Positions 25,701 through 44,661 of a stretch of DNA of 64,000 nt are shown in pieces. Below the pieces are notes generated by a model. It made no database searches. It saw nothing but the letters and a program-made list of their open reading frames with translations, and was not told the DNA's origin. Position numbers and translations under genes: made by a program. The stretch's first letter is position 1. Every line of letters starts with the position of its first letter. The DNA is from a virus. The stretch covers positions 32,001 through 96,000 of the IMG/VR virus record IMGVR_UViG_3300042691_013609. The stretch is one strand, 5' to 3'.

Positions 25701-27367
25701 GAGTCTAAGTACATTTCATATGGAGCATTGGCGTATGCCTTATCAATCATATCTTGTATGTCTTTGTCAGCGTCTATGTAAGGTACAATATCATTGTCGT
25801 TAAGGTTATTAGGTACTTCTACGATAAGTTCTATCTCCTTAAAGAACTTTACTATACCTGTCAATTTGATTTGTCTTGTTTCCATTTTAATTTAATTTTC
25901 TTTTGTGTATAAAACATAAGATACAAATACCCCAGACAATGATAAGTCATTGTTTAAGTCATCCATAAAGTCAGATATCCTTTCGACTGATATATAATCC
26001 TCATTGATATCGCTAAACTCTCTTTGAATCATATCCTTAACATACCATTGACCAGACCCTTCGTAGTCGGGCGGTGATGTGAAGACACTATTCTCCAACT
26101 TTTCGCATACCTTACGTGCGTTATGGTAGAATACCCTTATTAATACTATAAATATTTCGTGTTTCATTTTAATTTGTTTTACCAAGATGCTAAATAAGTA
26201 TAGCCAACCCATACATCATCGTCTTCGTCAATGTCATCAATCTCATTCTGCAATATATCTATTGTGAACTCTACATCTTTAATATAAAATTCATCAACCT
26301 CTTGACCGCCAAAAAAGAAACCAGCGACAGGTGGCATCAACTCCTCAGCACACGCATAGTTTGCGTCACGTATCGCGATAAGCATATCAAGTATGTTTGT
26401 CAAGTCTTCCTTTGTAAGTCGTACCTCTTGGCAATTGTCTACTTGATTTGCAAAGTTCTCAATTATATATCCGTGTAGTGCGTTGAACTTTCTCCAATAG
26501 GCTACCTCTTCTTTGATGTAGGCTACTCTTTCTGGTTTAATCTTTGTGGCATGACCACCTCTTTTTACATCAACATCAAATCTCTCTTCTTTAGAAGAGA
26601 ACGACCAATTCTTTACGTAAGTTTGTTTGTATAAATACATATCAAGTCCCATAATTATTTATTTAATAAGTTAATATAATTGTTTGCCTCCTCTTGAGAC
26701 CTAAACTGACCTATGCTTTCAACTATCTTCTCGTTGTAAACCTCGACCAACTCGTACCAAAAGTGATTGTACCTTGAATGAATAATTCTGTACTCTCCTT
26801 GTTTGTTTGTCTTTACTGCTTCCATATCATACAAATAATTGTTCACAATATTCATCGAACTCTTGTTCGGTACAGCAGGACAGGTACTCTTTCTCTTCGG
26901 TTGCTTCAGAACTTGTATTCCAATTTGTTATCTCCAAATCAGTAAGCCTTATAACGGCTGTGTAGTTATTCCAAATCTCTTGGAAGAATTGAAACTTGTT
27001 TGTCTCTCTAATTAAGTGTGTCATAATAAATATTTAATCGTTAAAGAATTCGCTCTCATTTATGAGCCACAAAGATAATATAACTAAAGCAATTAACAAA
27101 ATAATCATTGGAATATTTTTAGTTTCAAGGAATAAGTAACTCATCAATGTGACCAACCACGTTACATTCTAAATCAAATACTGCATTCATAACAGATGAA
27201 TCTGTGTACCATCGCTTAACGAACCTAACTAAGTCACTATGGGATACCCTCTCTTGGGTAGTGAATGAAGCAAAGTCATCTGCTAACTTTTCATTGTCTC
27301 TATCTAAAAAGTGTTTCAATACATCGGATGAGAAGTAATAAGTCTCTGAAAATATTTTATGTGCCAT
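22716..27367 (-). other. Cluster of about 14 small hypothetical CDSs, including a multi-pass membrane protein (23374-24012) and an MGLDMYL..YWRK family protein (26179-26652)
   Basis: ORF track; dense, co-oriented, A/T-rich leaders. Confidence 0.65.
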
Positions 27368-27463
27368 GTTAAATTATTTTATTAGTTAAAAAATATTGTG
27401 CGTTATTGTTTGAGTGTATAACTCTGTACTCGCCTTGCTTGTTTTTTTTCATATCCATTGTAT

Positions 27464-27904
27464 TTAACTAAACATATACTCACCGAAAAGAATGTACTGC
27501 AACAGAACGTCGCAGTCCTCAGCATCAGACTCTTCATGATACACCCTATCGAATGCTAATTGGAATGCATCGCTTGGTTCTTCTTCTAAGAATTTCCACA
27601 AGGCTTTCTCTACTACATCTAAGGTAAGGGGGGTTATTTGCACATCGAAACCTTCTTTGAGTACAAACTTTATATCGCCACCTGCAATAATCATCTCAGC
27701 ATATATACACTCAAGCGTTTGGTCTAATTTTTGTTTCGCCAATCGAGACCTTGCTTCTCTATACTTCTCCTTGTCCCAATCAATATAGAATCCATACGCA
27801 CTAAAGTAATAGATGCCATCTGAAAGAATGGTGGAAATAAAATCTCTATAAGAGATCGTAACTTCCTTACAGATACGGAACGTTCCGTTGTGTGTGTTTG
27901 TCAT
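27464..27904 (-). CDS. Hypothetical protein, paralog of 27925-28335
   Basis: Shared MTNT, G.YYFS.YG and DAE.CDV.LQ.IL.G motifs. Confidence 0.7.
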   Translation of the reverse strand: MTNTHNGTFRICKEVTISYRDFISTILSDGIYYFSAYGFYIDWDKEKYREARSRLAKQKLDQTLECIYAEMIIAGGDIKFVLKEGFDVQITPLTLDVVEKALWKFLEEEPSDAFQLAFDRVYHEESDAEDCDVLLQYILFGEYMFS

Positions 27905-27924
27905 TGTGTTTGTTTTTAATTAGG

Positions 27925-28335
27925 TTAACCAAATATAATATCTCCATAAAGAATACATTGCAGTATTACATCACACGTCTCAGCATCGTCCTCCTCTGCT
28001 AAGAGAGTGTCTACTGCATTGGTAAAAGTGGGGTTGACCCCATACAAGTTCTTTAAACCATCTTCAACAGATTGTAGCGTTAGGTCTGCGTTCATCTCAC
28101 CATCACCCTCTATGTCATCAAAATGTAACGTATAACCATCAATAATCATTTGAGTTAATACATCCTCCCATGCTGGGTCTGAAAGTGTAGAACTTTCTTT
28201 TGTAAGTTCATAACCCTTTCGGCTATAGTTTAACTGAATGCCGTATCCGGAAAAGTAATACATACCATTACATAGTAAGTTGCAGATAAATTCTCTGATG
28301 TGAGGGGTCTTATCTATTTGAAGTGTGTTTGTCAT
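27925..28335 (-). CDS. Hypothetical protein, paralog of 27464-27904
   Basis: Same shared motifs as its neighbour. Confidence 0.7.
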   Translation of the reverse strand: MTNTLQIDKTPHIREFICNLLCNGMYYFSGYGIQLNYSRKGYELTKESSTLSDPAWEDVLTQMIIDGYTLHFDDIEGDGEMNADLTLQSVEDGLKNLYGVNPTFTNAVDTLLAEEDDAETCDVILQCILYGDIIFG

Positions 28336-28361
28336 TGTGTTTTATTTATTTGATTAATTAA

Positions 28362-28922
28362 TTACTTAATGAATTCTCTATAAAATTTCGTAAACCTCTG
28401 CACGAATCTATCGTTAGCAAACAAATCAGATAACGTTGGTGCAACGATATTGCAATAATTTCTTTCCTCCTGCACTACTCTGTAAGTTCCGTCTAATACG
28501 ACGTATGTCTCCCCATTATCAGCAGTGTACCTTTTGCCGTGAGCATAGTACTTTATTACTAAAAATGAAGTGTCAGACTTGCCCTTTATTATTATTTTTC
28601 CAAGAATGTTGTCTCTTTCGTAATCCGGAAGACCTTTCCATTCGTCATCTAACCATATGCTTAATTCGATTTGCATTGTTGGCGGCATATCTTGCTTGAG
28701 CAAATTGAAATCTGTTTCAAGTAACTCTACCAATGGTTTAACCATTGACTTATTTATTATCCTTGCCTCCTCTATCTGCGCTTTAGAACGCTGATTGTCG
28801 GCATCTAAAACTGAGATATCGAAAAAGTTGAAAGACTTGTTTGCAAAGTTTCTTTGCTCGTTGAAAGACAAGAACTCTTGTGTAATTGAGTTAATAATTT
28901 CTTGTTGATTCTGTGTTAACAT
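28362..28922 (-). CDS. Hypothetical protein
   Basis: 186-aa ORF. Confidence 0.65.
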   Translation of the reverse strand: MLTQNQQEIINSITQEFLSFNEQRNFANKSFNFFDISVLDADNQRSKAQIEEARIINKSMVKPLVELLETDFNLLKQDMPPTMQIELSIWLDDEWKGLPDYERDNILGKIIIKGKSDTSFLVIKYYAHGKRYTADNGETYVVLDGTYRVVQEERNYCNIVAPTLSDLFANDRFVQRFTKFYREFIK

Positions 28923-29045
28923 TTTAATTATATTTAATTGTTTAATAAAATTAATTTTAAGGTACTTGCGGTGCGTTCTGTTGGACTTTCTCCTATCAAG
29001 TGGTACTTGGTATCATATAATAAAAGAAAGTCCATTAGAATCGAT

Positions 29046-29261
29046 TTAAAAAGCCATCTCTCTTTTTGCTTTTTTATCTGCAAGATAAAGTTCTTTATGT
29101 GCTTTAGACCAATAGGCGTGACCCTCAATGGTATCACCCCATATGAAAGCCTCTTCCAATGTCTTCTGATAAATAGATAACTCAGTTAATCCTGGGCGTT
29201 GTTCCAAAGCGTTGGCTATTGCTCTGTGTCTGAGTACGAGTGGGAGTTTTGCAATTGTCAT
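29046..29261 (-). CDS. Small hypothetical protein (AFIW..T.EG..YW motif)
   Basis: ORF track; palindrome about 17 nt upstream. Confidence 0.6.
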   Translation of the reverse strand: MTIAKLPLVLRHRAIANALEQRPGLTELSIYQKTLEEAFIWGDTIEGHAYWSKAHKELYLADKKAKREMAF

Positions 29262-29312
29262 TTTGAAAAAGATTGTAGCAGTTACCTCCGAGGTAACTGC
29301 CGTGTTATAAAA

Positions 29313-30197
29313 TTAGTTTAGTTGTGCAAGTGCTGCGCTGAATGTGTTCTGTACCAATGTATTCACTGAAGAGTAAAGAAGTTTCTCCTCATTCTTATTC
29401 GACTTGTCATGTGTAGCGTACCTTGTGAACCCATTCACAACAGAGAACAAGTTGTCGCCGGTATTACTCATCTCGATAGCCACACTTCTGTTGATTGCAT
29501 CAAGCATTGTCCGTGACTGCGCACTCATGGTCTTGTAATCCTTTGCTGAAAGACCTGTTACTTTCTTAATGAAAGAATCAAGTTCATTACTATCGATCCT
29601 CAATGATGCCATGCGCCCGAAGTCTATAAGGAACTCATTGTTCTTTTCTATGGTGTTGGCAATGTACCCACACAGATTATAAATCTTCATGTGGTTATTA
29701 GTGGTGTTCTTGAATGACATAACTTGTGAGTGGGGCGAAGATGCACCATTACTGCACCAAAGTCTGTACATATACTCTGTAATGGATGTCTTGGTAAGTC
29801 CGTCAAATCCAGTTCTGAATTCAAGTCTACGCTTTATCACATCTCCAACCATAGGTGAACCTTTTATCTCGGTAGTTGGTAGTGCCAATGTGAATGCCAC
29901 CTTCTTGCCACCATGGTATTCTTTAAAGTCCAAAGTTGAAAGATCGATATTCACATCACAACTCATAACAGACTGCACAATACTCTCAAGCATTATCTCA
30001 AGATTCATTGGTGAATATCTGCTGCCGACTACGCCAAGAGCAGCACCGCCTGAGTTCTTATACACACCGAATGCATCAGGGCTATCGAACATCTCGTTGC
30101 CAGTGTGTAGTTGGATAAGTTTAGGTTCAAACAACTTCTCTCTTACTGCTTCGATGTTGTCGAACTCTCTTTCGATTTGATTTAAAATGTTACTCAT
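29313..30197 (-). CDS. DUF932-family protein
   Basis: LGVVG.RY, GFDG, RLWCSNG, NG.T.YATH motifs. Confidence 0.8.
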   Translation of the reverse strand: MSNILNQIEREFDNIEAVREKLFEPKLIQLHTGNEMFDSPDAFGVYKNSGGAALGVVGSRYSPMNLEIMLESIVQSVMSCDVNIDLSTLDFKEYHGGKKVAFTLALPTTEIKGSPMVGDVIKRRLEFRTGFDGLTKTSITEYMYRLWCSNGASSPHSQVMSFKNTTNNHMKIYNLCGYIANTIEKNNEFLIDFGRMASLRIDSNELDSFIKKVTGLSAKDYKTMSAQSRTMLDAINRSVAIEMSNTGDNLFSVVNGFTRYATHDKSNKNEEKLLYSSVNTLVQNTFSAALAQLN

Positions 30198-30547
30198 TTG
30201 TTTGATGTTTTAGATTTAAGAATAATTGCTACAATAATTAAGATTAAAAGATAGATGTTCATGGCGTGTCTTGTATTACGATTGCGTTTGATTTAATCAT
30301 GCCCCACACTTTAGATACTGCTGAGTTCCAATTGGTTCTCAGTTTAGATGCAAGTTCTCTTACCTTGCCGAGATAGTTACGAAACCAAATGATTACCTTC
30401 CACGCCCAAAGCAGATGGAAGATAGACACCATGTCGTTTCCAAACTTATCCTTCTTTCCGTACAATGATATGGTTTCCTTTGCGTAATGCACATCCACCA
30501 TGCTATAAAAGTTTTTCATGCTAATTGATTTTTAAATTATTGATTAT

Positions 30548-30588
30548 CAGTTCATTCTAAAATTGAGCAGTATAAATAAACTCAGGGT
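30548..30588. repeat. 41-nt exact repeat, copy 1
   Basis: CAGTTCATTCTAAAATTGAGCAGTATAAATAAACTCAGGGT is identical to 44621-44661. Confidence 0.95.
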
Positions 30589-30712
30589 GTTTATATATAG
30601 TATAATATGTATGCTATACAACATAGTGTATATAATAAAGCAATAGTAATAAAAGCACCCATCTGAATTAAAGATTTGTTTTCCATGTTGATTATATTTA
30701 ATGATTAATAAA

Positions 30713-30940
30713 TTAAAATTGCGCTAAGAACTGCTGCTTTGCAGGGATACGTACTCTTTTCTTTTGCGTTTTCCTACCCTTACACGCATTGAAAACCATT
30801 GTGCTGCTATCCCATACTCCATTCAACTCACGTTGTTTCTGTTTAACCAATAGGTTGAATGGTTTCCAATCACTCTCCCATGGTTGTGGGTAGTACCCTA
30901 ATTCGTAGACTGCCATCTCTTCTGCTAATGAAAGTTTCAT
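30713..30940 (-). CDS. Small hypothetical protein
   Basis: ORF preceded by a palindrome and a promoter. Confidence 0.6.
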   Translation of the reverse strand: MKLSLAEEMAVYELGYYPQPWESDWKPFNLLVKQKQRELNGVWDSSTMVFNACKGRKTQKKRVRIPAKQQFLAQF

Positions 30941-31001
30941 ATCTTGTTTTAGTTTGCGGCAGTTACCTCCGAGGTAACTACCCTTGTTATAAAATGATAT
31001 A

Positions 31002-31009
31002 CAAATATA
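31002..31009 (-). promoter_or_regulatory. TATATTTG -7 promoter element, early class
   Basis: TAnnTTTG plus an upstream block (plus-strand TTAATTAAAAAAGTTCCTA) shared with the 34521 promoter. Confidence 0.75.
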
Positions 31010-31075
31010 AGTGAATTAATTTAATTAAAAAAGTTCCTATTGATTTATTTTGTAGCCTGCCGGAATAATTTCAGA

Positions 31076-31345
31076 CTACCTATTCCAATTGATTTCACCA
31101 CACTTAATACAGACTATGTTATCTTCCTTTACCATTCTGTACCCAGACTTGCACCACAATGTAATGAGACCTTTTGATTCGGGGTTAAACTTCAACCCAC
31201 CGCCCTTCACATCTTTCCTTACCCCAGTTCTGAACACTCGTGTGACCTGCTCTCCTTTCGCACCACTCTTTGAGTCAGTGCTTCTTTCAAATGTCACCGA
31301 TACAAACCTTCCGTTTGTCTGTTTGATTACTTCTCTTGCTTTCAT
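31076..31345 (-). CDS. Small SH3/WYL-like fold phage protein
   Basis: FVSVTF..RTGV..LITLW..GYRM pattern; start set to ATG 31345. Confidence 0.55.
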   Translation of the reverse strand: MKAREVIKQTNGRFVSVTFERSTDSKSGAKGEQVTRVFRTGVRKDVKGGGLKFNPESKGLITLWCKSGYRMVKEDNIVCIKCGEINWNR

Positions 31346-31455
31346 ATGTTTAAAATTTGGTGGTTTATCTGCCATCTGCTGCACTTTATTGGCGCAGATG
31401 GACAGACACCCCACAGGTTAAATAATAATTCGTTACAACGTATCTAATGAGGTCA

Positions 31456-32130
31456 TTACAAATCGACCACAAATCCAGACTTGTCTTGCTTCGCCTTACC
31501 CTTGGCAACCAAGCCTATAATGACACCCGATTCGTCCAAGAATCTTGTATCTGATTCGTCACCATCGATTACTTTGTAACCCCAAAAGGTTTCCGGCAAT
31601 CTGTTTCTGAACACTACCGCCACGTTGACCCCATTGGATAACATCTCTTTACAGATGTCATCGTTGTCTTCGCTCCGACTGAACGTGACATGGTAGTTAG
31701 GTACGTTCTTCGATGACCTTGCGAAGTTAGGATTCTTTGTGTAGTCATACCACACTATAGATGGGAACTTCCCATTCATCTTCTTTATGTACGGCATCCA
31801 GTTCAGATCGGACGTACCATTCAATCTGATGGCAAGTTTCTGATGCTTTCTTGAATGCTTTTCTATCTCAGATGTGAGGTTCACCATGAACCCTACCCTA
31901 TCCTTCACATAGTGTAGTGTTCGGTTGACCCTTGTCTGCTGAACGTTTGTAAACTTACCACGACCTGCCGTGTTAAGACACGCAGCCTTGCATCCTGCCG
32001 ATGCATTAGGGCATACGTTGTACCCGCTTTCGTCAGCGGGTGCAAGGTACATGATGAAGTTTTCGTAGTCAGAATACTTGTCTGACTTGTCTATCTTTGC
32101 TGACTTGCCTAATAAATATCCGTATTTCAT
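31456..32130 (-). CDS. Gp88-like phage protein with Cys cluster (radical-SAM-like)
   Basis: CP.AS.GC..ACL, IRLNGTSD, YDYTK, YH.TFS.SE, DGD..D.RFLD, GL.AKG. Confidence 0.75.
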   Translation of the reverse strand: MKYGYLLGKSAKIDKSDKYSDYENFIMYLAPADESGYNVCPNASAGCKAACLNTAGRGKFTNVQQTRVNRTLHYVKDRVGFMVNLTSEIEKHSRKHQKLAIRLNGTSDLNWMPYIKKMNGKFPSIVWYDYTKNPNFARSSKNVPNYHVTFSRSEDNDDICKEMLSNGVNVAVVFRNRLPETFWGYKVIDGDESDTRFLDESGVIIGLVAKGKAKQDKSGFVVDL

Positions 32131-32138
32131 GGCAAATA

Positions 32139-32471
32139 TTATTTTGTAGGGTAAGCAAATGCGGTTCTTTCATTCTTCCAAAAGACTACAATGCCGTCTT
32201 GTTGTTCGACCCTCTGTACAATCTTTTGTGTTGCTCCATCAACCCAAACGTTGCTACCTTCTATTCGGTAAAACTCTTGGATAGATGTTTGTGATACACG
32301 GAATGCAACTACATCTGCACACACTTGAGTGTAGATGCATTCTTTCTTTGTTACTTTGCCGTCCTTCGATTCACTCTGCTTGAATGAATGTCTTTGAATG
32401 GTATTGCAGTCTGACTGCGCTGACAATGTGGTTACCGCGAATAAGAATGCGGTGATAAGAATGTTTCTCAT
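32139..32471 (-). CDS. Secreted hypothetical protein
   Basis: Signal peptide MRNILITAFLFAVTTLSA-Q, with the +1 Gln typical of Bacteroidota. Confidence 0.65.
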   Translation of the reverse strand: MRNILITAFLFAVTTLSAQSDCNTIQRHSFKQSESKDGKVTKKECIYTQVCADVVAFRVSQTSIQEFYRIEGSNVWVDGATQKIVQRVEQQDGIVVFWKNERTAFAYPTK

Positions 32472-32562
32472 AAGATAATATTTGATAAGGTTTAAAAATT
32501 GTTTTGAGTAGTTACCTCCGAGGTAACTGCGACATCTCTTTCTGATGTTGCCGTTAACACTA

Positions 32563-32570
32563 CAAAGATA
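32563..32570 (-). promoter_or_regulatory. TATCTTTG -7 promoter element, early class
   Basis: TAnnTTTG; leader sequence similar to 34494-34530. Confidence 0.75.
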
Positions 32571-32632
32571 AGCAATATTTTTTTAACTAAAAAATTCTTG
32601 GCTAATTATTTTCGGTTCTGATGGGAATAATT

Positions 32633-33171
32633 TTAGATACCATTTCTGTAGCAGAAATTGTCGTAGTACGCATCCTCTTCCGCACTGATATACGATCTGG
32701 TATCTGATGCTTCTTTTTCTTCTCTATATTTTTTGGATGCCGAGCAGTATGCCTTCTTAGTATGGAAGCAATACCAAATGTCGTGACCTTTCATGATGAA
32801 TGTGTCTGTCTCTGCGCACAGAGAACCTATCTTTGACTTCATAAATTTACCACTCATGGTTTATTGTTTTTTAGGTTAGATAAAAAAGGCAGTTACCTCC
32901 GAGGTAACTGCCCTATAAGAATTTAGATTGCAAACATGAACACCCCAGGACTTACCTCGATTCTTTCCACTCTCATTCTTTTATTCTGTGCAACGACATC
33001 TAATGTGGCGTTGTACATTAGGGCTGCGTGTACTTCATCATCTGGGTATCTTCTCCCGATGAAGTACTTCAGACTATTCATAGCCCTCTCCTGCTCCTGC
33101 TCAGTCTTTGCATTCTCCAACCTGCCTTTCCAATACATAATCTTTTGCAGGTAACCGTCTTTTTGTCTCAT
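32633..33171 (-). other. Two small hypothetical CDSs (32633-32857, 32923-33171)
   Basis: ORF track; separated by a palindrome copy. Confidence 0.6.
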
Positions 33172-33365
33172 ACTAAAATAAATTTGAGGTTAAAAAATAA
33201 ATTACAATTCTACGTCCTTATCAAACGGACGCTTGGTCTCTCTCCAAATGTAGGGTAAGTAGCATATACCCGCCACCCAAGAAACGATTTTTAAAACTAA
33301 TACTACAGACATATCCATCGGTTTTGTGTAGTTACCTCCGAGGTAACTACGTTGTGAAAAAATAG

Positions 33366-33436
33366 TTGCCGTAGTTGGACTCGAACCAACACCCCACACC
33401 ATACCATGTGTGTGGGTAACCTATATGCTACGGCAA
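33366..33436 (-). ncRNA. D-arm-less tRNA-like RNA, copy A
   Basis: Acceptor-like TGCCGTA/TACGGCA, T-arm GTTGG-TTCGAGT-CCAAC, stem CCCACAC/GTGTGGG with loop ACATGGTATG. Confidence 0.75.
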
Positions 33437-33442
33437 ATTCTG

Positions 33443-33823
33443 TTATACGGAGGCGAGAGATAGAGCATCCTCCACAGCATCCTCATAGGTGTCAAATACA
33501 CCTAATACAGACACTACATTAGTGCCTTTTATAAGAAGAACACTATGCTTGTCACCTTCACCTGTCCACTGAACACATAAGAACTCATGCGCCTTCACGG
33601 CAGCACTTAATTCTTCAGCAGAAGTGATGCCTGTAAATTCCTCAATGGTCTTAGTCCAAAACTGAAGACCGCTCCACAAATCAGAGGGTTCTGCACCCTC
33701 TACATATTGCAGAAGAGGGTAGAATCCTTCACACCCATTGTTCTCAAGAAAGGATACTAAACCACAATGGTGGACATGAGATGTCATCTCAGACACTTTA
33801 CCATTTACTAAATACTTTGCCAT
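33443..33823 (-). CDS. Hypothetical protein flanked by the two tRNA-like RNAs
   Basis: Likely start ATG 33823 (MAKYLV); C-terminal GVFDTYEDA motif. Confidence 0.65.
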   Translation of the reverse strand: MAKYLVNGKVSEMTSHVHHCGLVSFLENNGCEGFYPLLQYVEGAEPSDLWSGLQFWTKTIEEFTGITSAEELSAAVKAHEFLCVQWTGEGDKHSVLLIKGTNVVSVLGVFDTYEDAVEDALSLASV

Positions 33824-33882
33824 AATAAATAAAATTTGTGCAATGCCTTTATTGTTTACAGACATTGCGGGTTAATTAATAG

Positions 33883-33953
33883 TTGCCACAATGGGACTCG
33901 AACCCATACCACAAGCCATACCATGTGCGTGTGTATCCAATATGCTGTGGCAA
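33883..33953 (-). ncRNA. D-arm-less tRNA-like RNA, copy B
   Basis: TGCCACA/TGTGGCA, T-arm ATGGG-TTCGAGT-CCCAT, identical loop ACATGGTATG; compensatory changes relative to copy A. Confidence 0.75.
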
Positions 33954-34031
33954 TACCATTGAGTAGTTACCTCAGAAGTAACTACTCAGAACAGATTTAA
34001 TGCCCGAGTAGTTACCTCCGAGGTAACTGGG

Positions 34032-34412
34032 TTAGTCAAGAACGTAGTGGATTGTACCGCTGTCGGTTGTATCGACAGCATTCATCTTAACTACAATCAT
34101 AGAGTCCCCACTTACATCCGGGACTCTGACTAATACCTTTCCATTCACGACCTCCACTTCCGTGTAGGTCATTATAGATTTTGCATTCCATTCAAAAAAT
34201 TCATTTGAATGTGCTGCGGAAATTGAGTCAAGGAAAGCAGACATTGCATCCATTGACTTAAAAGTTGAATCGATCCGACCTGTTTCTGTGCCAAGGGTAA
34301 GACCTTTGACATAGTAAATGTCAGACGTACCATAGACCGAAAGGTCATACGGCTTTGCAGCATACCAACCCACAAGGATTCCAAATGCTGCGCTGAATAA
34401 AGATTTAGACAT
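34032..34412 (-). CDS. Membrane-anchored hypothetical protein
   Basis: Likely start ATG 34412 (MSKSLFSAAFGILVGWY); the ORF-track extension runs through a palindrome. Confidence 0.6.
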   Translation of the reverse strand: MSKSLFSAAFGILVGWYAAKPYDLSVYGTSDIYYVKGLTLGTETGRIDSTFKSMDAMSAFLDSISAAHSNEFFEWNAKSIMTYTEVEVVNGKVLVRVPDVSGDSMIVVKMNAVDTTDSGTIHYVLD

Positions 34413-34520
34413 AAAAAATAAATTTAGAAACCAAGCGCAGAATCGAACTGCCGTAGTTACCTCCGAGGTAACTGCCAAACCATTCAAGGTTACCGACATC
34501 TCTCAATGCCGTTTGCACTA

Positions 34521-34528
34521 CAAAGATA
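34521..34528 (-). promoter_or_regulatory. TATCTTTG -7 promoter element, early class
   Basis: TAnnTTTG with conserved upstream block. Confidence 0.75.
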
Positions 34529-34599
34529 ATGCAAATAGTTTAATTAAAAAAGTTCCTACCCAACTATTTTCAGAAGGATAGAAACTTTTCCCCTCAGAA

Positions 34600-34863
34600 T
34601 CAGAACCCTTTCTTTCCTGCTCTCGCAGGTACTGGGGCAAGTAATCTCTCCCTTGTCAGTGGGGAGTGACCAACGGGAAGCCATGTGTTGACAGTATTAA
34701 TATACTTGTCAACAATCTCATCACCTCCATAGTGGAGGGATGAATTGTAGTTACCCTTTCTGTAATCAGAGACTAATTCAATAGCCCTCTTACCTCTGTA
34801 AAGGGCGGATGTCTGTACACCATCATTGTACCATGATGTGTACGCAAATTTAATATTACTCAT
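34600..34863 (-). CDS. Small hypothetical protein
   Basis: 87-aa ORF; inverted palindrome copy about 17 nt upstream. Confidence 0.6.
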   Translation of the reverse strand: MSNIKFAYTSWYNDGVQTSALYRGKRAIELVSDYRKGNYNSSLHYGGDEIVDKYINTVNTWLPVGHSPLTRERLLAPVPARAGKKGF

Positions 34864-35250
34864 TTTAAATATGGTTTGCGGTAGTTACCTCGGAGGTAAC
34901 TACCATGGTTAAAAAATCATTTTTTTGTAGTTACCTCCGAGGTAACTGCCAAGAGACATTTTCGTTCCTAAGTAGTTACCTCCGAGGTAACTACTTTTTT
35001 GTTTGGTGTAGTTACCTCCGAGGTAACTGGCGAAAATGGCGGGTAAAAAACTGAATAAAGACATTGGTTGCCATCATCAGCACTACATACCCCTATGTAG
35101 CGGACACAATACACCATAGTACCATGTTTCGGCTTCATGTATGCAGTTACCTCCAAGGTAACTACAAAAATGCATCGATTGCGATGCAATCAAAAACCCA
35201 TTTACCCCTACCTACACAAAGCAGATAGGGGTAAAGGGAGGGAGTGGTGC

Positions 35251-35877
35251 TTATTCAGCACCCTCCAATGAATCCCAACGCTGACGGGCAGCATTGACGA
35301 TTGTTTCCAAATCGGAAATATCCGCCTGCCCAATAAAGGCAAGCACCGCCTCCAAGGATGTGACATTTGTAGTTACCTCCGAGGTAACTGCCTCGTCAGT
35401 ACCCTCACCCTCAGACTCAGAGGCAGCCTTGCGACCGCCCGATTTCGTGTTTCCGGTCGCCTCATTCACCGCGCTCGCAAGCGCGTTAAGAGACCAAATG
35501 CCCTCCTCCATGTAGAGGGTTCTCGCCACATCGGGGTGCTTGCCGATTGTGGCATAAATGGTACATTGCTTGTACCCAAAGGCCCGAGGGCCAAATTTCT
35601 TGTCGCCCATCCAAGATTTGAATGAGGTGTAGTTGCCGAGATTGGCAAGGTTGCTCTCCACTACCGCGCGGAGGGCAAGTACTGCCTTTCCTACCGCGAT
35701 GTATCCGTCCACAATGGACGTGTGTTCGCGGTGGCAAGCAGCGGTTAATTCTCTTTCCGCGTCCGACACCATGGACGCGAGGGTGGCTTGTTCTGTTGTG
35801 GTCAACCAAATGCCCTTAACGTCTTCGATTACGACTTCAGGGACGATTACTGCGGTGGATACTGATTTCTTTGACAT
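35251..35877 (-). CDS. DUF3102-like putative DNA-binding protein, first gene of the early block
   Basis: YIAVGKAVLALR..SFKSWM..FGYKQCTIYATIG resembles the DUF3102 helical/HTH pattern; visibly GC-rich; contains the palindrome in frame (AVTSEVTT). Confidence 0.55.
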   Translation of the reverse strand: MSKKSVSTAVIVPEVVIEDVKGIWLTTTEQATLASMVSDAERELTAACHREHTSIVDGYIAVGKAVLALRAVVESNLANLGNYTSFKSWMGDKKFGPRAFGYKQCTIYATIGKHPDVARTLYMEEGIWSLNALASAVNEATGNTKSGGRKAASESEGEGTDEAVTSEVTTNVTSLEAVLAFIGQADISDLETIVNAARQRWDSLEGAE

Positions 35878-35944
35878 GACTAAAAAATTGATAGGTTACT
35901 GCCTTTGGTGGTGTTTCTCGTGTCCCTACTTTCAAAAGCATACG

Positions 35945-35952
35945 CAAATTTA
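35945..35952 (-). promoter_or_regulatory. TAAATTTG -7 promoter element for the first early gene
   Basis: TAnnTTTG about 70 nt upstream of ATG 35877, with an upstream T-tract as in other early promoters. Confidence 0.65.
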
Positions 35953-36049
35953 CATACTTATTCCGATATACCAAACTTTTTACCTAAAAAAATTCACTTT
36001 TTTTGAAATTTTTTTTTGGACCACTCAGTTACCTCCGAGGTAACTACAC

Positions 36050-36510
36050 ATATATAAAAAAACACAATATAACAAAGGGGTATCATATAATGATTATACA
36101 TATATGTGTGTGATGTTGTGAGAGACAACCTATAGTGCTATGTGACCATGATGTGTATCATATTATGTATATTCATATATGTTTGATGTGTATGGTATGG
36201 TATGGTATGGTATATACTTTATGGTTTCATATGTGTATACTATATGCCATGAAACCAAAAACCAAAAACTCCATGTAGGGGGTAGGTTGAAAACGCGCAC
36301 GTGGGGGTGGGGGGCACTAGGCTTGGGACCCCACCTCATATATGTATATGTCCAGAAATGTTGTGACTCTTATATATGTATATGTCCGAAATTGGGTAGT
36401 CGGTATTGTGTCTGTCTTATAGTCAAAGGCTTTATATGTAGCGAGGGTGGGGCGGGGGTATTTTTTATAGTGTAGTTTCTATGGTTATTTTGGTATAGGG
36501 GGTTATAGAA
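36050..36510. other. Non-coding skewed region, candidate genome terminus, packaging site or origin
   Basis: G/T-rich plus strand, (TATGG)4 at 36191, ATATATGTATATGTCC twice (36338, 36372), G-runs; sits at a module boundary. Confidence 0.45.
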
Positions 36511-36511
36511 T

Positions 36512-36556
36512 AAAAAAAAAGCCCCAATATACGTTTTATTGTATACCGGGGCTTTT
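36512..36556 (-). terminator. Intrinsic terminator ending the nucleotide-metabolism block
   Basis: A9-GCCCC..TATAC..GTATA..GGGGC-TTTT. Confidence 0.8.
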
Positions 36557-36924
36557 GTTAGTGTTTCCTTTTATTTGTTTATGTTACCTTTTGTAGGTAT
36601 GTCTTTACTATATAGAATATGGTAGTTAGTAGTATTGTGGTTAGTACCAGGTTTCTTTTATTGATTTTTAACCCGCCGCAGCAGGACTGCTCAACGTACT
36701 TGTCTAATACATAGACAGAGAAAAAGACAAATATTACTATAAATAATGTACTCATTGTTCATTTATTTTTTCCTTTTTATTCTGTTCTTTAGGGAGAGTA
36801 TAAGGAGGTTCAAAGAAAGCGTCGTACTCCGTAAAGGTATATTCAGTATACATACGTAAGAACCTAATCGTTTGTACCCTTTTCTTTTTTATGAACCTCT
36901 TTATAAAATTAAACATAAACTATC

Positions 36925-37575
36925 TTATTTATTGTACTCAAAGTCTAATATCTTTCCTACTACATCTGACCTGTGGTTCTCGTGTAGTTTTACCCATTTT
37001 ATTTCCGGGATTCTTTTAGATAACTCAATGGCATAGGATAAACCGTTGTACTCATCCTTGATATCCTTCTGCTCGTTGTCACCTATGATGATAATACGAC
37101 CACCCTTACCAAGCCTCGTTAACAAACCAAGCATTTGGTGCTTACTCGTGTTTTGTGATTCATCACATACAAGTATCTTACCTTGTTTAATTGTTTTACC
37201 ACGGGCAAACTGTATTGCGAAACCCTCAAACCTTCCCTCTTCCATTGTCTTATCAATCTTTGTTCGGTCATAACATTGGTACAGGTTGTCCTTAAAAGGA
37301 TCCAAGTAGGGGTCTAGTTTTTGGTCTAAGGTTCCTGGAAGGAAACCAAGGCTGTCGCCCATCTGTTGTGTCGGTCTTGTTACGTAGACTTTGTCAACAT
37401 CCTGCTTAAAGATTAAGTCTAAAGCTGTTTGAGCGGCAGTTAAGGTTTTACCACAACCCGCACGTCCTGTTATGATTACTATTTCATTATCCATTATAAG
37501 CCTCTTAGCCTCCTTCTGCTCATCGTTTAGGTTGACTAAGTACTTAATGTCGTTTTTTCTTTCTCTAGCACACAT
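36925..37575 (-). CDS. phoH: PhoH-like ATPase
   Basis: GRAGCGKT, TRP, GFLPG, RG.T, DESQN, LTRLG, GD..Q.D, HRS. Confidence 0.93.
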   Translation of the reverse strand: MCARERKNDIKYLVNLNDEQKEAKRLIMDNEIVIITGRAGCGKTLTAAQTALDLIFKQDVDKVYVTRPTQQMGDSLGFLPGTLDQKLDPYLDPFKDNLYQCYDRTKIDKTMEEGRFEGFAIQFARGKTIKQGKILVCDESQNTSKHQMLGLLTRLGKGGRIIIIGDNEQKDIKDEYNGLSYAIELSKRIPEIKWVKLHENHRSDVVGKILDFEYNK

Positions 37576-38105
37576 TAGTTAATCAATTTATATTTTTTAA
37601 TTACTTCTTCATCCGAAAAAAATTGCCTTTTTATTTTATTTAACTCGTCATACCATACGTAAACATCTTCTCCTTTTTTAATTTTAGCTATATCTGCTTT
37701 GGATAAACCAATTTGCATATATTGGGCGTATATATCTTCGTTCATAACTTCTAGTAATTCTTTAGCCTTAGAACCAAACACACCTTGCCTAATTGTTCCT
37801 ACAGTAATGTCCGGAGCATGGAACATAAACCCTCTAAAATACTTTTGCAAAAATATCGGACCCTCATAATCACAAAGTAGTAATGTACCGGCACTAGCAA
37901 CAAAATCATAAAGAGTTAATTTTAATGTATCTGTTTTACTTCTGTAATTAAGAAAATCAATTAATATATTCATTTCATTAATTACACCCCCGTCAGTAGA
38001 GAAATATAAATTAACAAATGGGTAGCTATTTATTTCATCAATTACACTAGCTACGTTTTCTGTGTTAATTGAACTATTAAAAATAACTGTGTGATCAAAG
38101 GTCAT
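37575..38105 (-). CDS. ClpP-like (S14) protease
   Basis: LYFSTDGG, VASAGTLL (catalytic Ser), FMFH. Confidence 0.7.
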   Translation of the reverse strand: MTFDHTVIFNSSINTENVASVIDEINSYPFVNLYFSTDGGVINEMNILIDFLNYRSKTDTLKLTLYDFVASAGTLLLCDYEGPIFLQKYFRGFMFHAPDITVGTIRQGVFGSKAKELLEVMNEDIYAQYMQIGLSKADIAKIKKGEDVYVWYDELNKIKRQFFSDEEVIKKYKLIN

Positions 38106-38610
38106 TTTTTAAATCTTTTGAGTTTCTAAAAACAATTGAATATCTTTTTTGGGATGCCGTTAAAGAGTGCTCCCAGTCGTACCTTAATTCGTCACTGAAT
38201 TTGCATAAAGAATATCTTGGTAAATAAAAGACTTTTGTAATTAATTTATCACCTTCTCTTTTTCTGAATTTTATTTCAGCCGGACTTAATAAACTAATTA
38301 TAATTATTTCTTTTAAATCTAACGGATGATCTACGTGCCAATTTATTGTTTGATTAGGATAGTATTCATTTATTGTTATTGAGTCATAAACAAATGTATC
38401 TTTGAACCTATCGAATATATCTGGAATTGTACTTGAAATAATATTATCATTATACGGTCTGTTATGCCCATACCTGAGTATTTGATTTCTTCCTTTTCCA
38501 TTTGCTAATCTATTTGGAATTAGTTTTAGTACTTCATTCTCAAAGTACTCATCTACATAATCCTCGATTACTTCAATCGTTTTAATTTCCTGTTGAGCCA
38601 AATCCTCCAT
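38095..38610 (-). CDS. AlkB-like 2OG-Fe(II) dioxygenase
   Basis: INEY..I.WHVD (HxD), ISL, WEH, RYSIVFR. Confidence 0.85.
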   Translation of the reverse strand: MEDLAQQEIKTIEVIEDYVDEYFENEVLKLIPNRLANGKGRNQILRYGHNRPYNDNIISSTIPDIFDRFKDTFVYDSITINEYYPNQTINWHVDHPLDLKEIIIISLLSPAEIKFRKREGDKLITKVFYLPRYSLCKFSDELRYDWEHSLTASQKRYSIVFRNSKDLKNDL

Positions 38611-39010
38611 CTCCTCTTTGTGTTTCAGTTAATTCATCTGCTTCTTCAAATTCAATTTTAGGGTAAGGTATAATAATCATTTGACCAACCTTATCACCAA
38701 CATTGTAAGAATTAGTTCCACTAATATATTTAAACCTAAACTTTATTTCTCCACGGTAACCACTATCAATTACACCAACAGAGTTGGTAAGAAGCATACC
38801 TGTTTTTGAAATAGAACTTCTTGGGAAGATTAAGCCTACATATCCTTCTGGTATTTCTACACAGATTCCTGTTCCGTATTCAAAATATCCGTATTTATTA
38901 TGGTCTTCTACTGTAATCCATGTTGCAACTAAATCTAAACCAGCGTCACCTGAATTTGCATAAGATGGTATTACGGCTTCAGGGACTAATTTTTTAATTT
39001 TTACTTTCAT
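38582..39010 (-). CDS. dut: Trimeric dUTPase
   Basis: AGLDL, PRSS, GVIDSGYRGEI, RGDGGFGSTG. Confidence 0.97.
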   Translation of the reverse strand: MKVKIKKLVPEAVIPSYANSGDAGLDLVATWITVEDHNKYGYFEYGTGICVEIPEGYVGLIFPRSSISKTGMLLTNSVGVIDSGYRGEIKFRFKYISGTNSYNVGDKVGQMIIIPYPKIEFEEADELTETQRGDGGFGSTGN

Positions 39011-39126
39011 TTCTAAATTTTAAATTTTAAAAATACCTGCACTTATCGTTGATTAAACTCAGAACACTAAATATAACGTCTCAAGGTAATAGTGCGGCAG
39101 GGTTACGACTTGTACAATCCTTCTAA

Positions 39127-40776
39127 TTAAGCTTCACAACTTACGCAGTCGTTGATGTTTCTGGCAAATGCCTGGGCAGAGTTCTCTGAAAATTGATAAT
39201 ACAGACTCTTTATCCCTAGTTCCCACGCCTCGATGTAAAGCTTGTTAATATCCTTGACAGGTGTGCTTGGGTGTACAGCTAAGTTAAAACTAATACCTTG
39301 ATCGATATACTTTTGCCTAGCTGAGTTTTGTCTTACAAGCTCCATTTGGCTTACTTCGACAAAAGTCTTAAAGACAAATTTCTCCTTGTCACTCAGAAAC
39401 TCAAGATGCTGAACAGATCCATCTTTAGATAGAATGCTATCCCACACATCTTTAGTATTCATCCCTTTAGACTCCAGGAGTTTTACCAACTCTGGATTCT
39501 TATACACTGTTTTGGACTTAGCCAAATCTTTTATAAAGTAGTTTGATTTAATAGGCTCTATGCCCATAGAAACTTGACCTAATATAAAAGATGACGATTT
39601 TGTTGGAGCTATAGCTAATGTTGTTACATTCCTTCTGCTGCTTCCTTGCAGCAGTTTGGGTACTCCATAAATACCAGCTAATTCTTCAGTTGCCTTATCG
39701 GCACAAGATCTGATATTCTTGAACATCTGCACATTGATTAACTTAGCGTCCATTGATTCAATAGGAATCATATTCTTTTGCAAGTAAGAATGCCAACCAA
39801 GAACTCCCAAGCCTAAAGCTCTTTGTTCTTTAGCAAACTTAACTGCCCTTTTCATAAATGGGATTGATCTAGCTTTTCTTATAAACTCAGACATCACTGC
39901 ATCCAAAAAGAATACCATAGTCTCAACTAAATCACTATCCTTCCACTCATCGTAATGATAAAGATTTAAAGATGATAAGCAACAAACAAATGACTCCTCA
40001 GAATTTGAATTTAAGAAAATTTCGGTGCAAAGATTTGACGCTACTATTTTCTTTCCGTTTTCTTTATACTCCTTTGGAGCGTTATTGTTTGCATTATCTA
40101 TAAAAATAACATAAGGGAATCCTATGTCTGATCTGCTGGATATTACTTTAGCCCATATTCTTCTTTTATCCTTGTCACCATCAATCATGCTTTTCATAAA
40201 GTCATCAGTGACTGTTACCCCATATTGCAGATTTTGAATAGGATGACCCTCATGTTTAATTTGTAAAAACTCTTCTATGTCTTTGTGTTCAATAGGAAGA
40301 TATACGGCACAAGCACCTCTTCTAGTATCAGCTTGTTTTGCCACATCAACCATTGTGTCAGTCAGTTTAGCAAAGTTAACAGGCCCATCTGAAAGACCTC
40401 CGCTTGTTATAACCGAACCCCTTGGTCTCAGATCCCCAAGATAAAGAGATGTTCCGCCTCCTTGCTTAGACATCATACCTACCTCTGAGTTTGAATACAG
40501 GATACCTTCCATCGTATCTTCGCTATAAGAACCATAGCAACTAATAGGTAAAGCTCTCAGCCCGAAATTAGCCCACACAGGAGTGGATAAAGAAATCCAA
40601 CCCCTTGACATATAATCTTCAAACTTATCAGCATACCCTTCTATTCCAAGAATACGCTCTGCCGTATCTGCAATTTCTCTAACTCTCTGCTCTGCTGTAT
40701 TCCCTTCTTGTATATAACCTCTTGATAGAAACTCCCGGCTTTCATCATTAAGCCAATAATATTTAGAATAAGTCAT
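39127..40776 (-). CDS. nrdA: Ribonucleotide reductase class I alpha subunit
   Basis: PISC, GGG, SNLCTEI, CCLSS, AIAPT.SSS, SLYY, C-terminal CVSCEA; start set to ATG 40776. Confidence 0.95.
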   Translation of the reverse strand: MTYSKYYWLNDESREFLSRGYIQEGNTAEQRVREIADTAERILGIEGYADKFEDYMSRGWISLSTPVWANFGLRALPISCYGSYSEDTMEGILYSNSEVGMMSKQGGGTSLYLGDLRPRGSVITSGGLSDGPVNFAKLTDTMVDVAKQADTRRGACAVYLPIEHKDIEEFLQIKHEGHPIQNLQYGVTVTDDFMKSMIDGDKDKRRIWAKVISSRSDIGFPYVIFIDNANNNAPKEYKENGKKIVASNLCTEIFLNSNSEESFVCCLSSLNLYHYDEWKDSDLVETMVFFLDAVMSEFIRKARSIPFMKRAVKFAKEQRALGLGVLGWHSYLQKNMIPIESMDAKLINVQMFKNIRSCADKATEELAGIYGVPKLLQGSSRRNVTTLAIAPTKSSSFILGQVSMGIEPIKSNYFIKDLAKSKTVYKNPELVKLLESKGMNTKDVWDSILSKDGSVQHLEFLSDKEKFVFKTFVEVSQMELVRQNSARQKYIDQGISFNLAVHPSTPVKDINKLYIEAWELGIKSLYYQFSENSAQAFARNINDCVSCEA

Positions 40777-44620: not shown

Positions 44621-44661
44621 CAGTTCATTCTAAAATTGAGCAGTATAAATAAACTCAGGGT
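44621..44661. repeat. 41-nt exact repeat, copy 2
   Basis: Identical to 30548-30588. Confidence 0.95.

Follow-up and report, generated by a model that had tools for sequence, protein, structure and literature searches.

Fifteen near-identical copies of a 23-bp palindrome lie among the small genes of an uncultured, virulent-type freshwater phage, in the same short region as a gene for an orphan protein of 208 amino acids (aa) that is predicted to form a homodimer. The DNA analysed (the window, 64,000 nucleotides long) comprises bases 32001-96000 of the linear 121,238-bp virus record IMGVR_UViG_3300042691_013609, which is estimated to be 80% complete, and the palindromes span 29.28-36.05 kb of this window. 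The symmetry of the sites, their apparent co-inheritance with a single gene and the modelled dimer of its product tentatively suggest, at somewhat short of an even chance, that the 15 palindromes are operators recognised as duplex DNA by the homodimer of the 208-aa protein (35251-35877). The parts of this reading differ in strength. Judging from the sequence pattern, it is rather probable that some protein binds the sites as duplex DNA; that the binding protein is the 208-aa one is suggested by sequence and structural modelling with a confidence that stops just below even; that the effect of binding is repression or a roadblock, which is argued by analogy, is possible but on the unlikely side. 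Docking of the protein at 15 sites would probably control small accessory genes. What the computation itself shows is where the sites lie, how they divide into half-sites, that they are inherited together with the gene and that its product is predicted to dimerise; the resulting hypothesis is a compact one: one orphan protein, one 23-bp site and 15 positions.

Distribution and symmetry of the palindrome

The motif AGTTACCTCNGAGGTAACT, that is AGTTACCTC-N-GAGGTAACT, is found at 15 sites of the window when up to two mismatches are allowed; 13 of these are exact and two carry one mismatch (copies 6 and 13, at 33965 and 35145; copies are numbered as in Table 1), while 100 dinucleotide-preserving shuffles yield none. 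A scan of the whole record returns the same 15 sites and no others, with zero matches for a reversed-pattern control; the confinement of the repeat to 29.3-36.05 kb, as put forward in the original prediction, thus holds over all 121 kb, and an even spread along the record is ruled out. Perfect palindromes whose arms reach 9 bp or more number 25 in the genome, 14 of them being members of this family, and 14 of the 15 copies of the family fall in the non-coding 25.4% of a 7,002-bp span (binomial P = 5e-8). Isolated 9-nt half-sites occur elsewhere in the genome at the level of chance, with 30 at one mismatch or fewer against about 25 in shuffles.

Alignment of the 15 copies gives a full motif of 23 bp, G-Y-AGTTACCTC-C-GAGGTAACT-R-C. 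G occupies position -11 in 14 copies and C occupies +11 in 13, and all 15 have Y (C/T) at -10 and R (G/A) at +10; with these four conserved positions, the core originally described, for which a variable length of 19-25 bp had been given, stands and is refined to 23 bp. Flanks that covary to lengthen the stem had also been proposed, and this is not borne out: the bases at ±10 form Watson-Crick pairs in six of the 15 copies against 7.3 expected from the column frequencies if the two sides were independent, the G/C combination at ±11 is simply conserved and is kept in 12 copies even where ±10 cannot pair, ±12 pairs in six copies, and further out pairing is at background (one to five of 15). At the other end of each arm, C at -1 and G at +1 are complementary although they are unpairable in a hairpin with a 3-nt loop. 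The arms show two changes in 270 positions (18 in each of 15 copies) and the centre two in 15, and no compensatory changes are found among the 15 copies, so that it is the sequence that is fixed and not merely the structure. Since Y and R are fixed at ±10 while their pairing is as expected by chance, two independent half-sites, 5'-G-Y-AGTTACCTC, in duplex DNA fit better than a selected hairpin; on this alignment, the flanks belong to a longer motif in which each half varies on its own. On the plus strand, the base at the centre is C in 13 copies, A in one (33965) and G in one (34883), the latter being the sole departure from C among the perfect copies, as was seen originally; 13 C against one G has a two-sided P of 0.0018, provided that the copies are independent of one another.

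RNA folding of the copies with 8-nt flanks gives -8.5 to -19.7 kcal/mol, with means of -12.9 in the mRNA sense and -13.2 in the antisense, and neither strand is favoured. In the mRNA sense, a stem still forms in each of the two imperfect copies (33965 through a U-G pair, whereas the change in 35145 falls in the loop). A T-rich tail is present on the sense strand of two copies only (32891 and 29280), which are called terminator-like, and on the antisense strand of one; in a test for intrinsic terminators (hairpin plus U-tract on the transcribed strand), 13 of the 15 fail on the sense strand. Canonical terminators made of a hairpin and a T-run are present elsewhere in the phage, at 36556-36517 and 35235-35201.

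The copies are placed closely with respect to genes and promoters. Seven end 11-42 nt upstream of minus-strand ATGs (29261, 30940, 32471, 32857, 33318, 34412 and 34863); six such copies had been counted before, and 33318 is the addition. Three copies (30961, 32510 and 34455) sit between a TAnnTTTG motif and the ATG, as previously noticed, at distances of 23, 35 and 48 nt from the motif; if transcription is assumed to start about 7 nt after TAnnTTTG, they would lie at about +16 to +41 of these three internal promoters, which have extended upstream sequence in common. TAnnTTTG is thus upstream of three copies, is downstream of one and is not found near the other 11, and canonical host-type promoters precede four genes of the block. 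Five copies (35145, 35010, 34974, 34929 and 34883) form an array in 285 bp without any open reading frame (ORF). Copy 15 is centred about 98 bp ahead of the point at which transcription of the 208-aa gene is expected to start, and A9, A7, T7 and A5 tracts lie between this copy and the promoter. Apart from copy 14, inside the 208-aa ORF, the other copies lie 4-15 nt after stop codons or 11-33 nt before start codons, and two flank tRNA-like elements. The density of copies rises toward the non-coding region at 36.05-36.5 kb; a putative genome end had been placed there, and the contig runs straight through this region, with no molecule ends among the assembled contigs. The palindromes covered by metagenome contigs (32510 in run X10, 33330 in run X12) are identical to those of the window, in a comparison based on fragmentary assembled contigs in which many bins have no cover.

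Table 1. Palindrome copies (23-bp extents) and associated features in the window; transcription runs from high to low coordinates.
Feature	Coordinates	Strand	Remarks
Copy 1	29278-29300		Perfect, flanks GC/GC; 15 nt after stop 29313, 18 nt before ATG 29261; T-rich minus-strand tail
Copy 2	30959-30981		Perfect core; starts 23 nt after TATATTTG (31009-31002), ends 20 nt before ATG 30940
Copy 3	32508-32530		Perfect core; starts 35 nt after TATCTTTG (32570-32563), ends 38 nt before ATG 32471
Copy 4	32889-32911		Perfect, flanks GGC/GCC, then TTTTTT on minus strand; ends 33 nt before ATG 32857
Copy 5	33328-33350		Perfect, flanks GT/AC; 13 nt after tRNA-like element 1, 11 nt before ATG 33318
Copy 6	33963-33985		Imperfect: centre A, +3 G>A; 9 nt before tRNA-like element 2
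Copy 7	34008-34030		Perfect core; 4 nt after stop 34032
Copy 8	34453-34475		Perfect core; starts 48 nt after TATCTTTG (34528-34521), ends 42 nt before ATG 34412
Copy 9	34881-34903		Perfect; sole copy with centre G on plus strand; last of array; ends 19 nt before ATG 34863
Copy 10	34927-34949		Array
Copy 11	34972-34994		Array; flanks AAGT/ACTT
Copy 12	35008-35030		Array
Copy 13	35143-35165		Imperfect: +1 G>A; first of array; after two terminator-like hairpins
Copy 14	35369-35391		Inside 208-aa ORF; encodes V164-T169 (VTSEVT) in predicted disordered linker
Copy 15	36025-36047		Ends 51 nt upstream of TTTG (-33) of 208-aa gene promoter; borders non-coding iteron-like region
TAnnTTTG of internal promoter upstream of copy 2	31002-31009	-	
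TAnnTTTG of internal promoter upstream of copy 3	32563-32570	-	
TAnnTTTG of internal promoter upstream of copy 8	34521-34528	-	
Gene for 208-aa orphan protein	35251-35877	-	53% GC against about 35% for the genome; candidate palindrome-binding dimer
Promoter of 208-aa gene, TTTG-N19-TAAATTTG	35945-35975	-	Read from sequence
Two terminator-like hairpins with T-runs after 208-aa gene	35171-35235	-	
Candidate type II hammerhead ribozyme	35062-35134	-	Between copies 13 and 12; predicted cut after C 35103
Two paralogous tRNA-like elements	33366-33435, 33883-33952	-	Palindrome copy 9-13 nt from each

The 208-aa protein and its link to the palindrome

The 208-aa gene is the first gene after a strong terminator and a non-coding stretch, and the TTTG-N19-TAAATTTG arrangement of its promoter is one that we take to be the Bacteroidota-type consensus. 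The protein belongs to no Pfam or PHROGs family. A profile search of 1.84 billion cluster representatives recovers only five clusters with the family, and word-seeded searches bring the number to 19 in all; no IMG/VR locus encoding the protein or a member of its family was found, a tblastn search of the phage collection with homologue P0007 gave no match, and no fused or longer forms of the protein were found. The 5' leader of the gene, 35878-35944 (GTAGGGACACGAGAAACACCACCAAA...), is apparently kept, in another frame, in the read-through N-termini of homologues P0008, P0012 and P0015 (SSEVGTRDTPPQTRT).

The AlphaFold model, which was built on P0001, a sequence that differs from the window protein at one residue, shows helices over residues 27-141 and disorder over 146-173 (predicted local distance difference test, pLDDT, under 50), with a helical hairpin at 175-206 as its last part. 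A homodimer is predicted with a score of 0.76 against 0.01 for the best control, with at least 53% of contacts common to the runs and a pLDDT of 70 or more for the partner; this mark is reached by 20 of 30 proteins solved as same-chain pairs and by one of 23 solved as single chains, a calibration that is only roughly valid here, our own alignment having been supplied. The predicted interface involves residues 24-80 and 173-204 and leaves most of 100-145 free. Within this free part lies the best-conserved stretch of the family, GYKQ[CM][TS][LI]Y...GK plus NE.TGN.K.GGRK, with invariant columns; being basic and polar, it has the character that would be expected of a DNA-reading surface. In P0016-P0018, P0026 and P0027 the GYKQ of this stretch reads GYSQ or GYAQ instead. 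A lead toward DUF3102 (rank 27 by ESM; rank 5 in BFVD, E 0.12) was dropped, as the DUF3102 hidden Markov model finds nothing in the genome; a literature search on DUF3102 gave nothing relevant among the results listed.

The link between protein and palindrome can be followed in two ways, the first of which is the linker of the protein itself. Homologues were compared as protein sequences only, and their linkers differ from one another both in sequence and in length. VTSEVT, the in-frame translation of the palindrome, is nevertheless retained in P0002, P0003, P0004 and P0006, four of the six cluster representatives that are at least 64% identical, and in the member P0014. In P0008 and P0015, which are 58% identical to the window protein, PVTSEVTT stands in a read-through N-terminus, 40 codons ahead of the true Met, the corresponding gap in this phage being 149 nt, which implies that an upstream copy of the palindrome is present in that relative too.

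The second is a relative that has neither gene nor site. G001, a 35-kb IMG/VR contig covering about 3 kb of the early block, has a TerL 78% identical to that of the window and is collinear with it from 65.5 to 36.9 kb, after which it continues for another 3.6 kb; the other relatives compared, G002 and G003, do not extend into the block region. The tail of G001 consists of a comparable non-coding region with repeats of its own, followed by homologues of the 87-aa, 74-aa and 86-aa genes in the same order (three of 15 block proteins tested, E 1e-14 to 5e-29). No homologue of the 208-aa protein was found in it, and its 35 kb contain no palindrome site within three mismatches, no other repeated palindrome and no repeated motif before the orthologous genes. 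Where this phage has copy 15, promoter, 208-aa gene, terminators and array, G001 runs directly from the non-coding region into the 87-aa homologue, and the stretch from copy 15 to the array looks like one insertion relative to G001. In the slot before the 74-aa gene, an ordinary 14-bp hairpin with a T-run forms a terminator in G001, and GGC-palindrome-GCC-TTTTTT (copy 4) takes that place in this phage. The comparison of gene content between relatives envisaged at the outset thus finds both a difference and an absence: between the shared anchor genes, gene content is wholly different from that of G001, which has no palindrome. From these sequence comparisons, the palindrome appears to be co-inherited with the 208-aa gene.

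Elsewhere, the exact 19-mer is found in one contig of the IMG/VR scan (one copy), in nine contigs of the GTDB genomes (one copy each, about the chance number by our estimate) and in 14 metagenome contigs, of which three (L034, L040 and L037) hold two copies. None of the 19-mer contigs from these scans is related to the phage and none encodes the 208-aa protein; the 17-mer core, scanned in IMG/VR, gives 20 contigs, all with a single copy and none with a homologue. At L034 1257-1313 and L040 1739-1795 the two copies are 38 bp apart in a contig of 70% GC; having identical flanks, these are apparently the same locus, which occupies the gap between two ORFs whose translations read as gmk and rpoZ. 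At L037 530-572 the copies are 24 bp apart in an unrelated contig of 52% GC. Such doublets may be coincidence or convergent local duplication. A full-text literature search on perfect palindromes between phage early genes gave nothing relevant among the results listed.

Proposed operators weighed against other explanations

If the 208-aa protein is the binder, the following sequence of events can be envisaged. The host polymerase would make the protein early, from its own host-type promoter, and the dimer would then occupy all of the sites: that at -98 bp across the phased A/T tracts, that in the 3' part of its own gene, the array before the next gene, the three at about +16 to +41 of the internal promoters, and the rest at 11-42 nt before start codons. 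With the dimer in place, each site would become a roadblock or silencer, and the 6.8-kb block of small accessory genes would be switched off or insulated, in the manner of KorB at O_B or of the cluster A stoperators. Recognition of duplex DNA by a symmetric dimer is favoured over recognition of a hairpin because the sequence is invariant and free of compensatory change, because the two-fold symmetry reaches the unpairable ±1 positions and a conserved G/C pair at ±11 lies beyond the uncoupled ±10, because folding shows no strand preference and copy 15 is preceded by a terminator and has a promoter downstream of it, and because the phage uses ordinary terminators where it needs them. The 208-aa protein is proposed as the binder on the grounds that the palindrome is co-inherited with a single gene whose product is predicted to dimerise. 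Repression by roadblock, together with autoregulation, is suggested by the sites near three promoters and before seven start codons and by the array before the first downstream gene. DNA binding, binding of the palindrome and repression are thus what we infer from the computed features. Among the options listed in the original prediction, that of operator or stoperator sites is the one favoured by the half-site pattern, the co-inheritance and the predicted dimer, although no DNA-binding fold was found; its choice of the 35251-35877 protein as the one to examine was well aimed.

Several observations weigh against this proposal, and those concerning the protein come first. There is no independent sign that the 208-aa protein binds DNA, and no DNA-binding fold or family was detected in it. 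Foldseek with the whole model finds nothing at E of 0.001 or less (best E 0.3 in PDB and 0.054 in BFVD), a model of the sub-domain 70-152, mediocre at pLDDT 69.7, has a best E of 3.2, a profile search of PDB with the family returns only designed armadillo repeats at E 0.07 or worse, and KorB matches only one of 11 members of the family, at E 0.08. A site of 23 bp is also long for a simple helix-turn-helix (HTH) dimer. As for the sites, the bias of 13 C to one G at the centre is unreadable by a symmetric dimer and needs another cause, which may be gene conversion between direct copies or a role at the RNA level; every copy is inevitably also a hairpin in any transcript (-8.5 to -19.7 kcal/mol), and one slot has a palindrome in place of the relative's terminator. 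As for the linkage, P0001 differs from the window protein solely by E167A, inside the palindrome, VTSEVT is broken by a deletion in P0005 (VTS lost), the 13 representatives whose identity is 60% or lower all lack it in the linker, and the whole comparison rests on few independent cases, namely one relative with about 3 kb of the block and homologues known as proteins only.

Unlikely, yet to be taken seriously, is an action at the level of RNA. The palindromes would then be terminators or attenuators, end-protecting stems or processing signals that, together with the hammerhead and tRNA-like elements, cut a polycistronic early RNA, and no dedicated DNA binder would be involved. This agrees with the location of 14 of the 15 copies in intergenic transcribed DNA between co-oriented genes, with stable stems that fold in the sense strand even in both imperfect copies, with two terminator-like copies, one slot of which, before the 74-aa gene, is filled by a terminator in G001, with the 13:1 strand bias of the centre base, and with the presence of a candidate hammerhead and tRNA-like elements within the same block. 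It agrees less well with the lack of compensatory changes, with pairing at ±10 in only six of 15 copies beside a conserved G/C beyond it, with folding that favours neither strand and with the 13 copies that have no sense U-tract despite canonical terminators elsewhere. Copy 15, being upstream of a promoter and after a strong terminator, is probably poorly transcribed, a terminator would be counter-productive in the three copies located downstream of promoters, and G001 handles orthologous genes without any palindrome.

Somewhat less likely again is a selfish or recombinogenic repeat, spread and homogenised by recombination, which would mediate the exchange of ORFan cassettes and have a coincidental or historical link to the 208-aa gene. 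The block is indeed rich in ORFans (a Pfam family in two of 10 proteins), gene sets between anchors differ from those of G001, near-identical copies fit recent spread or gene conversion, and a uniform centre base fits conversion between direct copies. A variant contig of about 90% identity (run X8, record 25) is without copy 1 and the 71-aa gene together: base 28949 is joined to 29312, and the 362 bases 28950-29311, which hold the 71-aa ORF (29046-29261) as well as copy 1, are replaced by 37 other letters. This junction is our own reading of the table, the joint table listing none, and no breakpoint is mapped to a palindrome. Against such a repeat, neither a tyrosine integrase nor a Y1 (HUH) transposase (PF01797) was found in the record, which is 80% complete; there is no fixed promoter-stem cassette, three copies being downstream and one upstream of a promoter at varying distances; the same palindrome is still found ahead of a homologue that is 58% identical and within homologues that are 64-87% identical, a long persistence for a neutral repeat; and the Y/R and G/C flank pattern indicates selection on 23 bp. 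Recombination and cassette exchange are in any case compatible with operators, and the two are not exclusive. For RNA processing or cassette shuffling, an option also raised at the outset, the support is circumstantial (hammerhead, tRNA-like elements, X8 variant and gene content of G001), and no recombinase is detected.

A centromere-like or DNA-organising array of the parS or sopC kind, which would segregate, compact or protect phage DNA with secondary effects on transcription, is improbable. The parS-like option draws on the fact that the copies are densest beside the origin-like iteron region, where at least six CATATATGT-like repeats lie in both orientations as in replication iterons, on the five-copy array in 285 bp of non-coding DNA, on the predicted dimer, and on a site located inside the gene of the presumed binding protein. 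The same placement is known from Bacillus subtilis, in which a parS site lies inside spo0J. Most sites are, however, precisely placed with respect to promoters and start codons, and the iteron-like region is only putatively an origin. Moreover, the record, at about 80% completeness, has no match to the ParA-type ATPase family PF13614, which was matched in 14 of 14 control genomes, no ParB_N (PF02195) or KorB (PF08535) domain was found in it, and neither an integrase nor any further indication that the phage lives as a plasmid-prophage was found.

Improbable to much the same degree is an antiterminator acting in the manner of lambda N at boxB, whereby the 208-aa protein would bind the RNA hairpin, starting in its own message, and allow read-through into the downstream genes. 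Copy 14 is suitably placed in the 3' portion of the first gene, with two terminator-like hairpins following 136 nt further on, which stand between this gene and the remainder of the block, and it is kept in four of six close homologue clusters; three copies are in 5' leaders just past promoters, and the centre base is strand-biased. Copy 15, however, is upstream of the promoter, the symmetry at the unpairable ±1 and uncoupled ±10 positions is unneeded by a hairpin binder, the predicted symmetric dimer suits duplex DNA better, no N-type arginine-rich motif is apparent on reading the sequence, and 15 sites are many for a nut-like system.

Least likely of all, and highly improbable, are single-stranded hairpin promoters for a virion RNA polymerase of the N4 or crAss type, an earlier option that could draw on the distant crAss/FpV4-like character and giant proteins of the phage, on the seven copies that end 11-42 nt before a start codon and on the fact that a common upstream motif, which would define the promoter type, was not detectable for the early transcripts of phi14:2 (10.1101/2020.03.07.982082), and which is disfavoured by the lack of a DFDxD polymerase motif in all six frames of the record and of a match to PF00940 (a weak test, as no control genome matched either), by giant proteins of 4,934, 1,727 and 1,689 aa without PDB relatives, by host-type promoters before four block genes and downstream of one copy, by one copy inside an ORF and five in tandem, and by the lack of a repeated motif before the orthologous genes of G001, which is expected to have the same polymerase.

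Returning to operators of the 208-aa protein, one wider scenario can be drawn, although it is a long shot. A module of foreign composition (the 53% GC gene and the palindromes) might have entered a virulent phage of the crAss/FpV4 type next to the origin-like iteron region and seeded copies among the accessory genes; it would provide plasmid-style silencing and a centromere array, similar to KorB with an unrelated fold and no ParA, by which host-takeover genes would be kept silent and the DNA organised in a non-lytic carrier state. If the 208-aa protein does bind, the locus would be a case of multi-site roadblock control in a virulent-type phage, and its family, if this is true, a new family of DNA-binding proteins; if it does not, the locus would cleanly exemplify a hairpin repeat that spreads within a hyperplastic region of a phage.

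Genomic setting and comparison with known systems

All genes from 8 to 46 kb of the window are on the minus strand, and the block at 29.0-36.05 kb contains 14 ORFs, small and mostly ORFans, with a Pfam family assigned in only two of 10 proteins scanned (GP88 and DUF932). This small ORFan gene content is consistent with the label of early region that the block was given, a label that comes from gene content alone. The operon upstream of the block includes ribonucleotide reductase, with a PhoH-like protein and a dUTPase labelled from their translations and not by family searches, and ends at the strong hairpin and T-run terminator at 36556-36517. About 470 bp of non-coding DNA (36050-36520) follow this terminator; CATATATGT(A/G)T-like repeats, at least six of them and in both orientations, are accompanied there by G-runs and a run of (GTATG)n. 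The region may be a replication origin or a packaging region. The non-coding region at the same place in G001 has different repeats, three copies of CCCnTTTGTACGTGGGGAT that are 44 bp apart.

Candidate structured RNAs are located within the block itself. The hammerhead candidate is a full-length match to Rfam Hammerhead_II with CUGAUGA, GAAA and GUC intact and, as read from the alignment, both closed stems of 8 pairs; its 30.4 bits (E 0.0049 in 8.5 kb) fall short of the gathering score, which is 37, and the scan of the full 64 kb does not list it. The two tRNA-like elements score 22 bits with Rfam tRNA, below the gathering score of 29, and are not called by ARAGORN. Matches to microRNA families in the array were rejected as artefacts of neighbouring palindromes pairing together. 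With a hammerhead candidate and two tRNA-like RNAs, this small region may be a dense regulatory hub. A separate element of 34 nt, CCTGAGTTTATTTATACTGCTCAATTTTAGAATG, occurs three times, at window 30553-30586 (minus strand), window 44626-44659 (minus strand) and G000 8537-8570 (plus strand), two of the copies being exact and one having one mismatch; it is intergenic, in gene sense and conserved in the relative G003, and could represent a phage-specific promoter or leader.

The terminase, portal and major head protein of the phage match PHROG families, and the nearest cultured major head proteins, at 21% identity, are those of FpV4-type phages of Flavobacterium psychrophilum, from which the phage appears to be distantly crAss/FpV4-like. 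No near-identical DNA for 29-37 kb was found among GenBank phages; the public runs containing the stretch come from 16 studies, bear labels such as freshwater, lake, wetland and similar metagenomes, and include no RNA run. Of the giant proteins, that of 4,934 aa is a single plus-strand ORF at G000 24536-39340 (in the window up to 7340) with no PHROG relative and a sub-threshold match to Pfam DUF7178 (E 0.0014, 19 bits against a cut-off of 27), and those of 1,727 and 1,689 aa are located further upstream of it. To our knowledge, there is hardly any work on how crAss-type and other Bacteroidota phages regulate their genes, phi14:2 being the one studied case. The early transcripts that the virion polymerase of phi14:2 produces are reported to have no detectable common upstream motif (10.1101/2020.03.07.982082).

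Several known systems share features with the palindromes, to differing degrees. In lambda, two nut/boxB sites act as RNA and N is a small arginine-rich monomer; likewise, the palindromes are hairpin-forming sites located after early promoters and before terminators, with a candidate factor encoded by the first early gene, but their symmetry features point to duplex DNA. Phage N4 uses three hairpin promoters at one genome end, which are recognised by its T7-like virion RNA polymerase. Short perfect hairpins with a 3-nt loop before early genes, in a phage with giant proteins, are common to both, whereas here there are 15 copies, tandem and intragenic ones included, no detected polymerase, and host-type promoters. 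Unlike the case of repetitive extragenic palindromic (REP) elements with their RAYT transposase, there is no PF01797 in the record, and the 208-aa protein has no Pfam match.

In the T4-type phages RB49 and phi1, PeSL cassettes are described, in the portion of the source cited here, as a stem-loop of variable sequence (polyG/polyC) that is joined to a strong sigma-70-like promoter and acts as a terminator (PMC2839356). According to the same portion (Arbiol et al. 2010, PMC2839356), these stem-loops are concentrated in the hyperplastic ORFan region, mostly just upstream of an ORFan, and are tied to gene gain and loss. The palindromes are likewise located upstream of ORFans in a hyperplastic region of small ORFans; in contrast to PeSL, their sequence is invariant, three of the 15 copies are downstream and one upstream of a promoter at distances that vary, and a sense T-tail is present in two of 15.

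The closest parallels are with systems of multiple operators. Stoperators of the cluster A mycobacteriophages are asymmetric sites of 13-14 bp spread genome-wide in temperate phages, where they are bound by the immunity repressor (gp71 in L5) and are thought to block elongation. The palindromes resemble them as many copies of one site in the intergenic gaps of co-oriented genes, inside transcribed DNA and in the same orientation; they differ in being palindromic, with the centre base as sole asymmetry, in a record in which no integrase or recognisable HTH_3 repressor was found. KorB of plasmid RK2, a protein with ParB_N and KorB domains that works with IncC (a ParA), acts at 12 O_B operators of 13 bp. 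O_B, too, is a short perfect palindrome in many copies, near promoters, far off or inside genes, and KorB is a dimeric global repressor encoded beside its own site, just as the 208-aa gene adjoins palindrome sites and its product is predicted to dimerise; here, however, the motif is 23 bp long and confined to 6.8 kb of a virulent-type phage, with no ParB_N, KorB or ParA-type partner found. Membership of either system, KorB or stoperator, thus fails on protein domains, partner ATPase, site asymmetry and temperate life style. Multi-copy palindromic operators with a cognate regulator are already known as such; what would be new here is the site, the orphan family, the crAss/FpV4-type setting and the association with ribozyme and tRNA-like elements.

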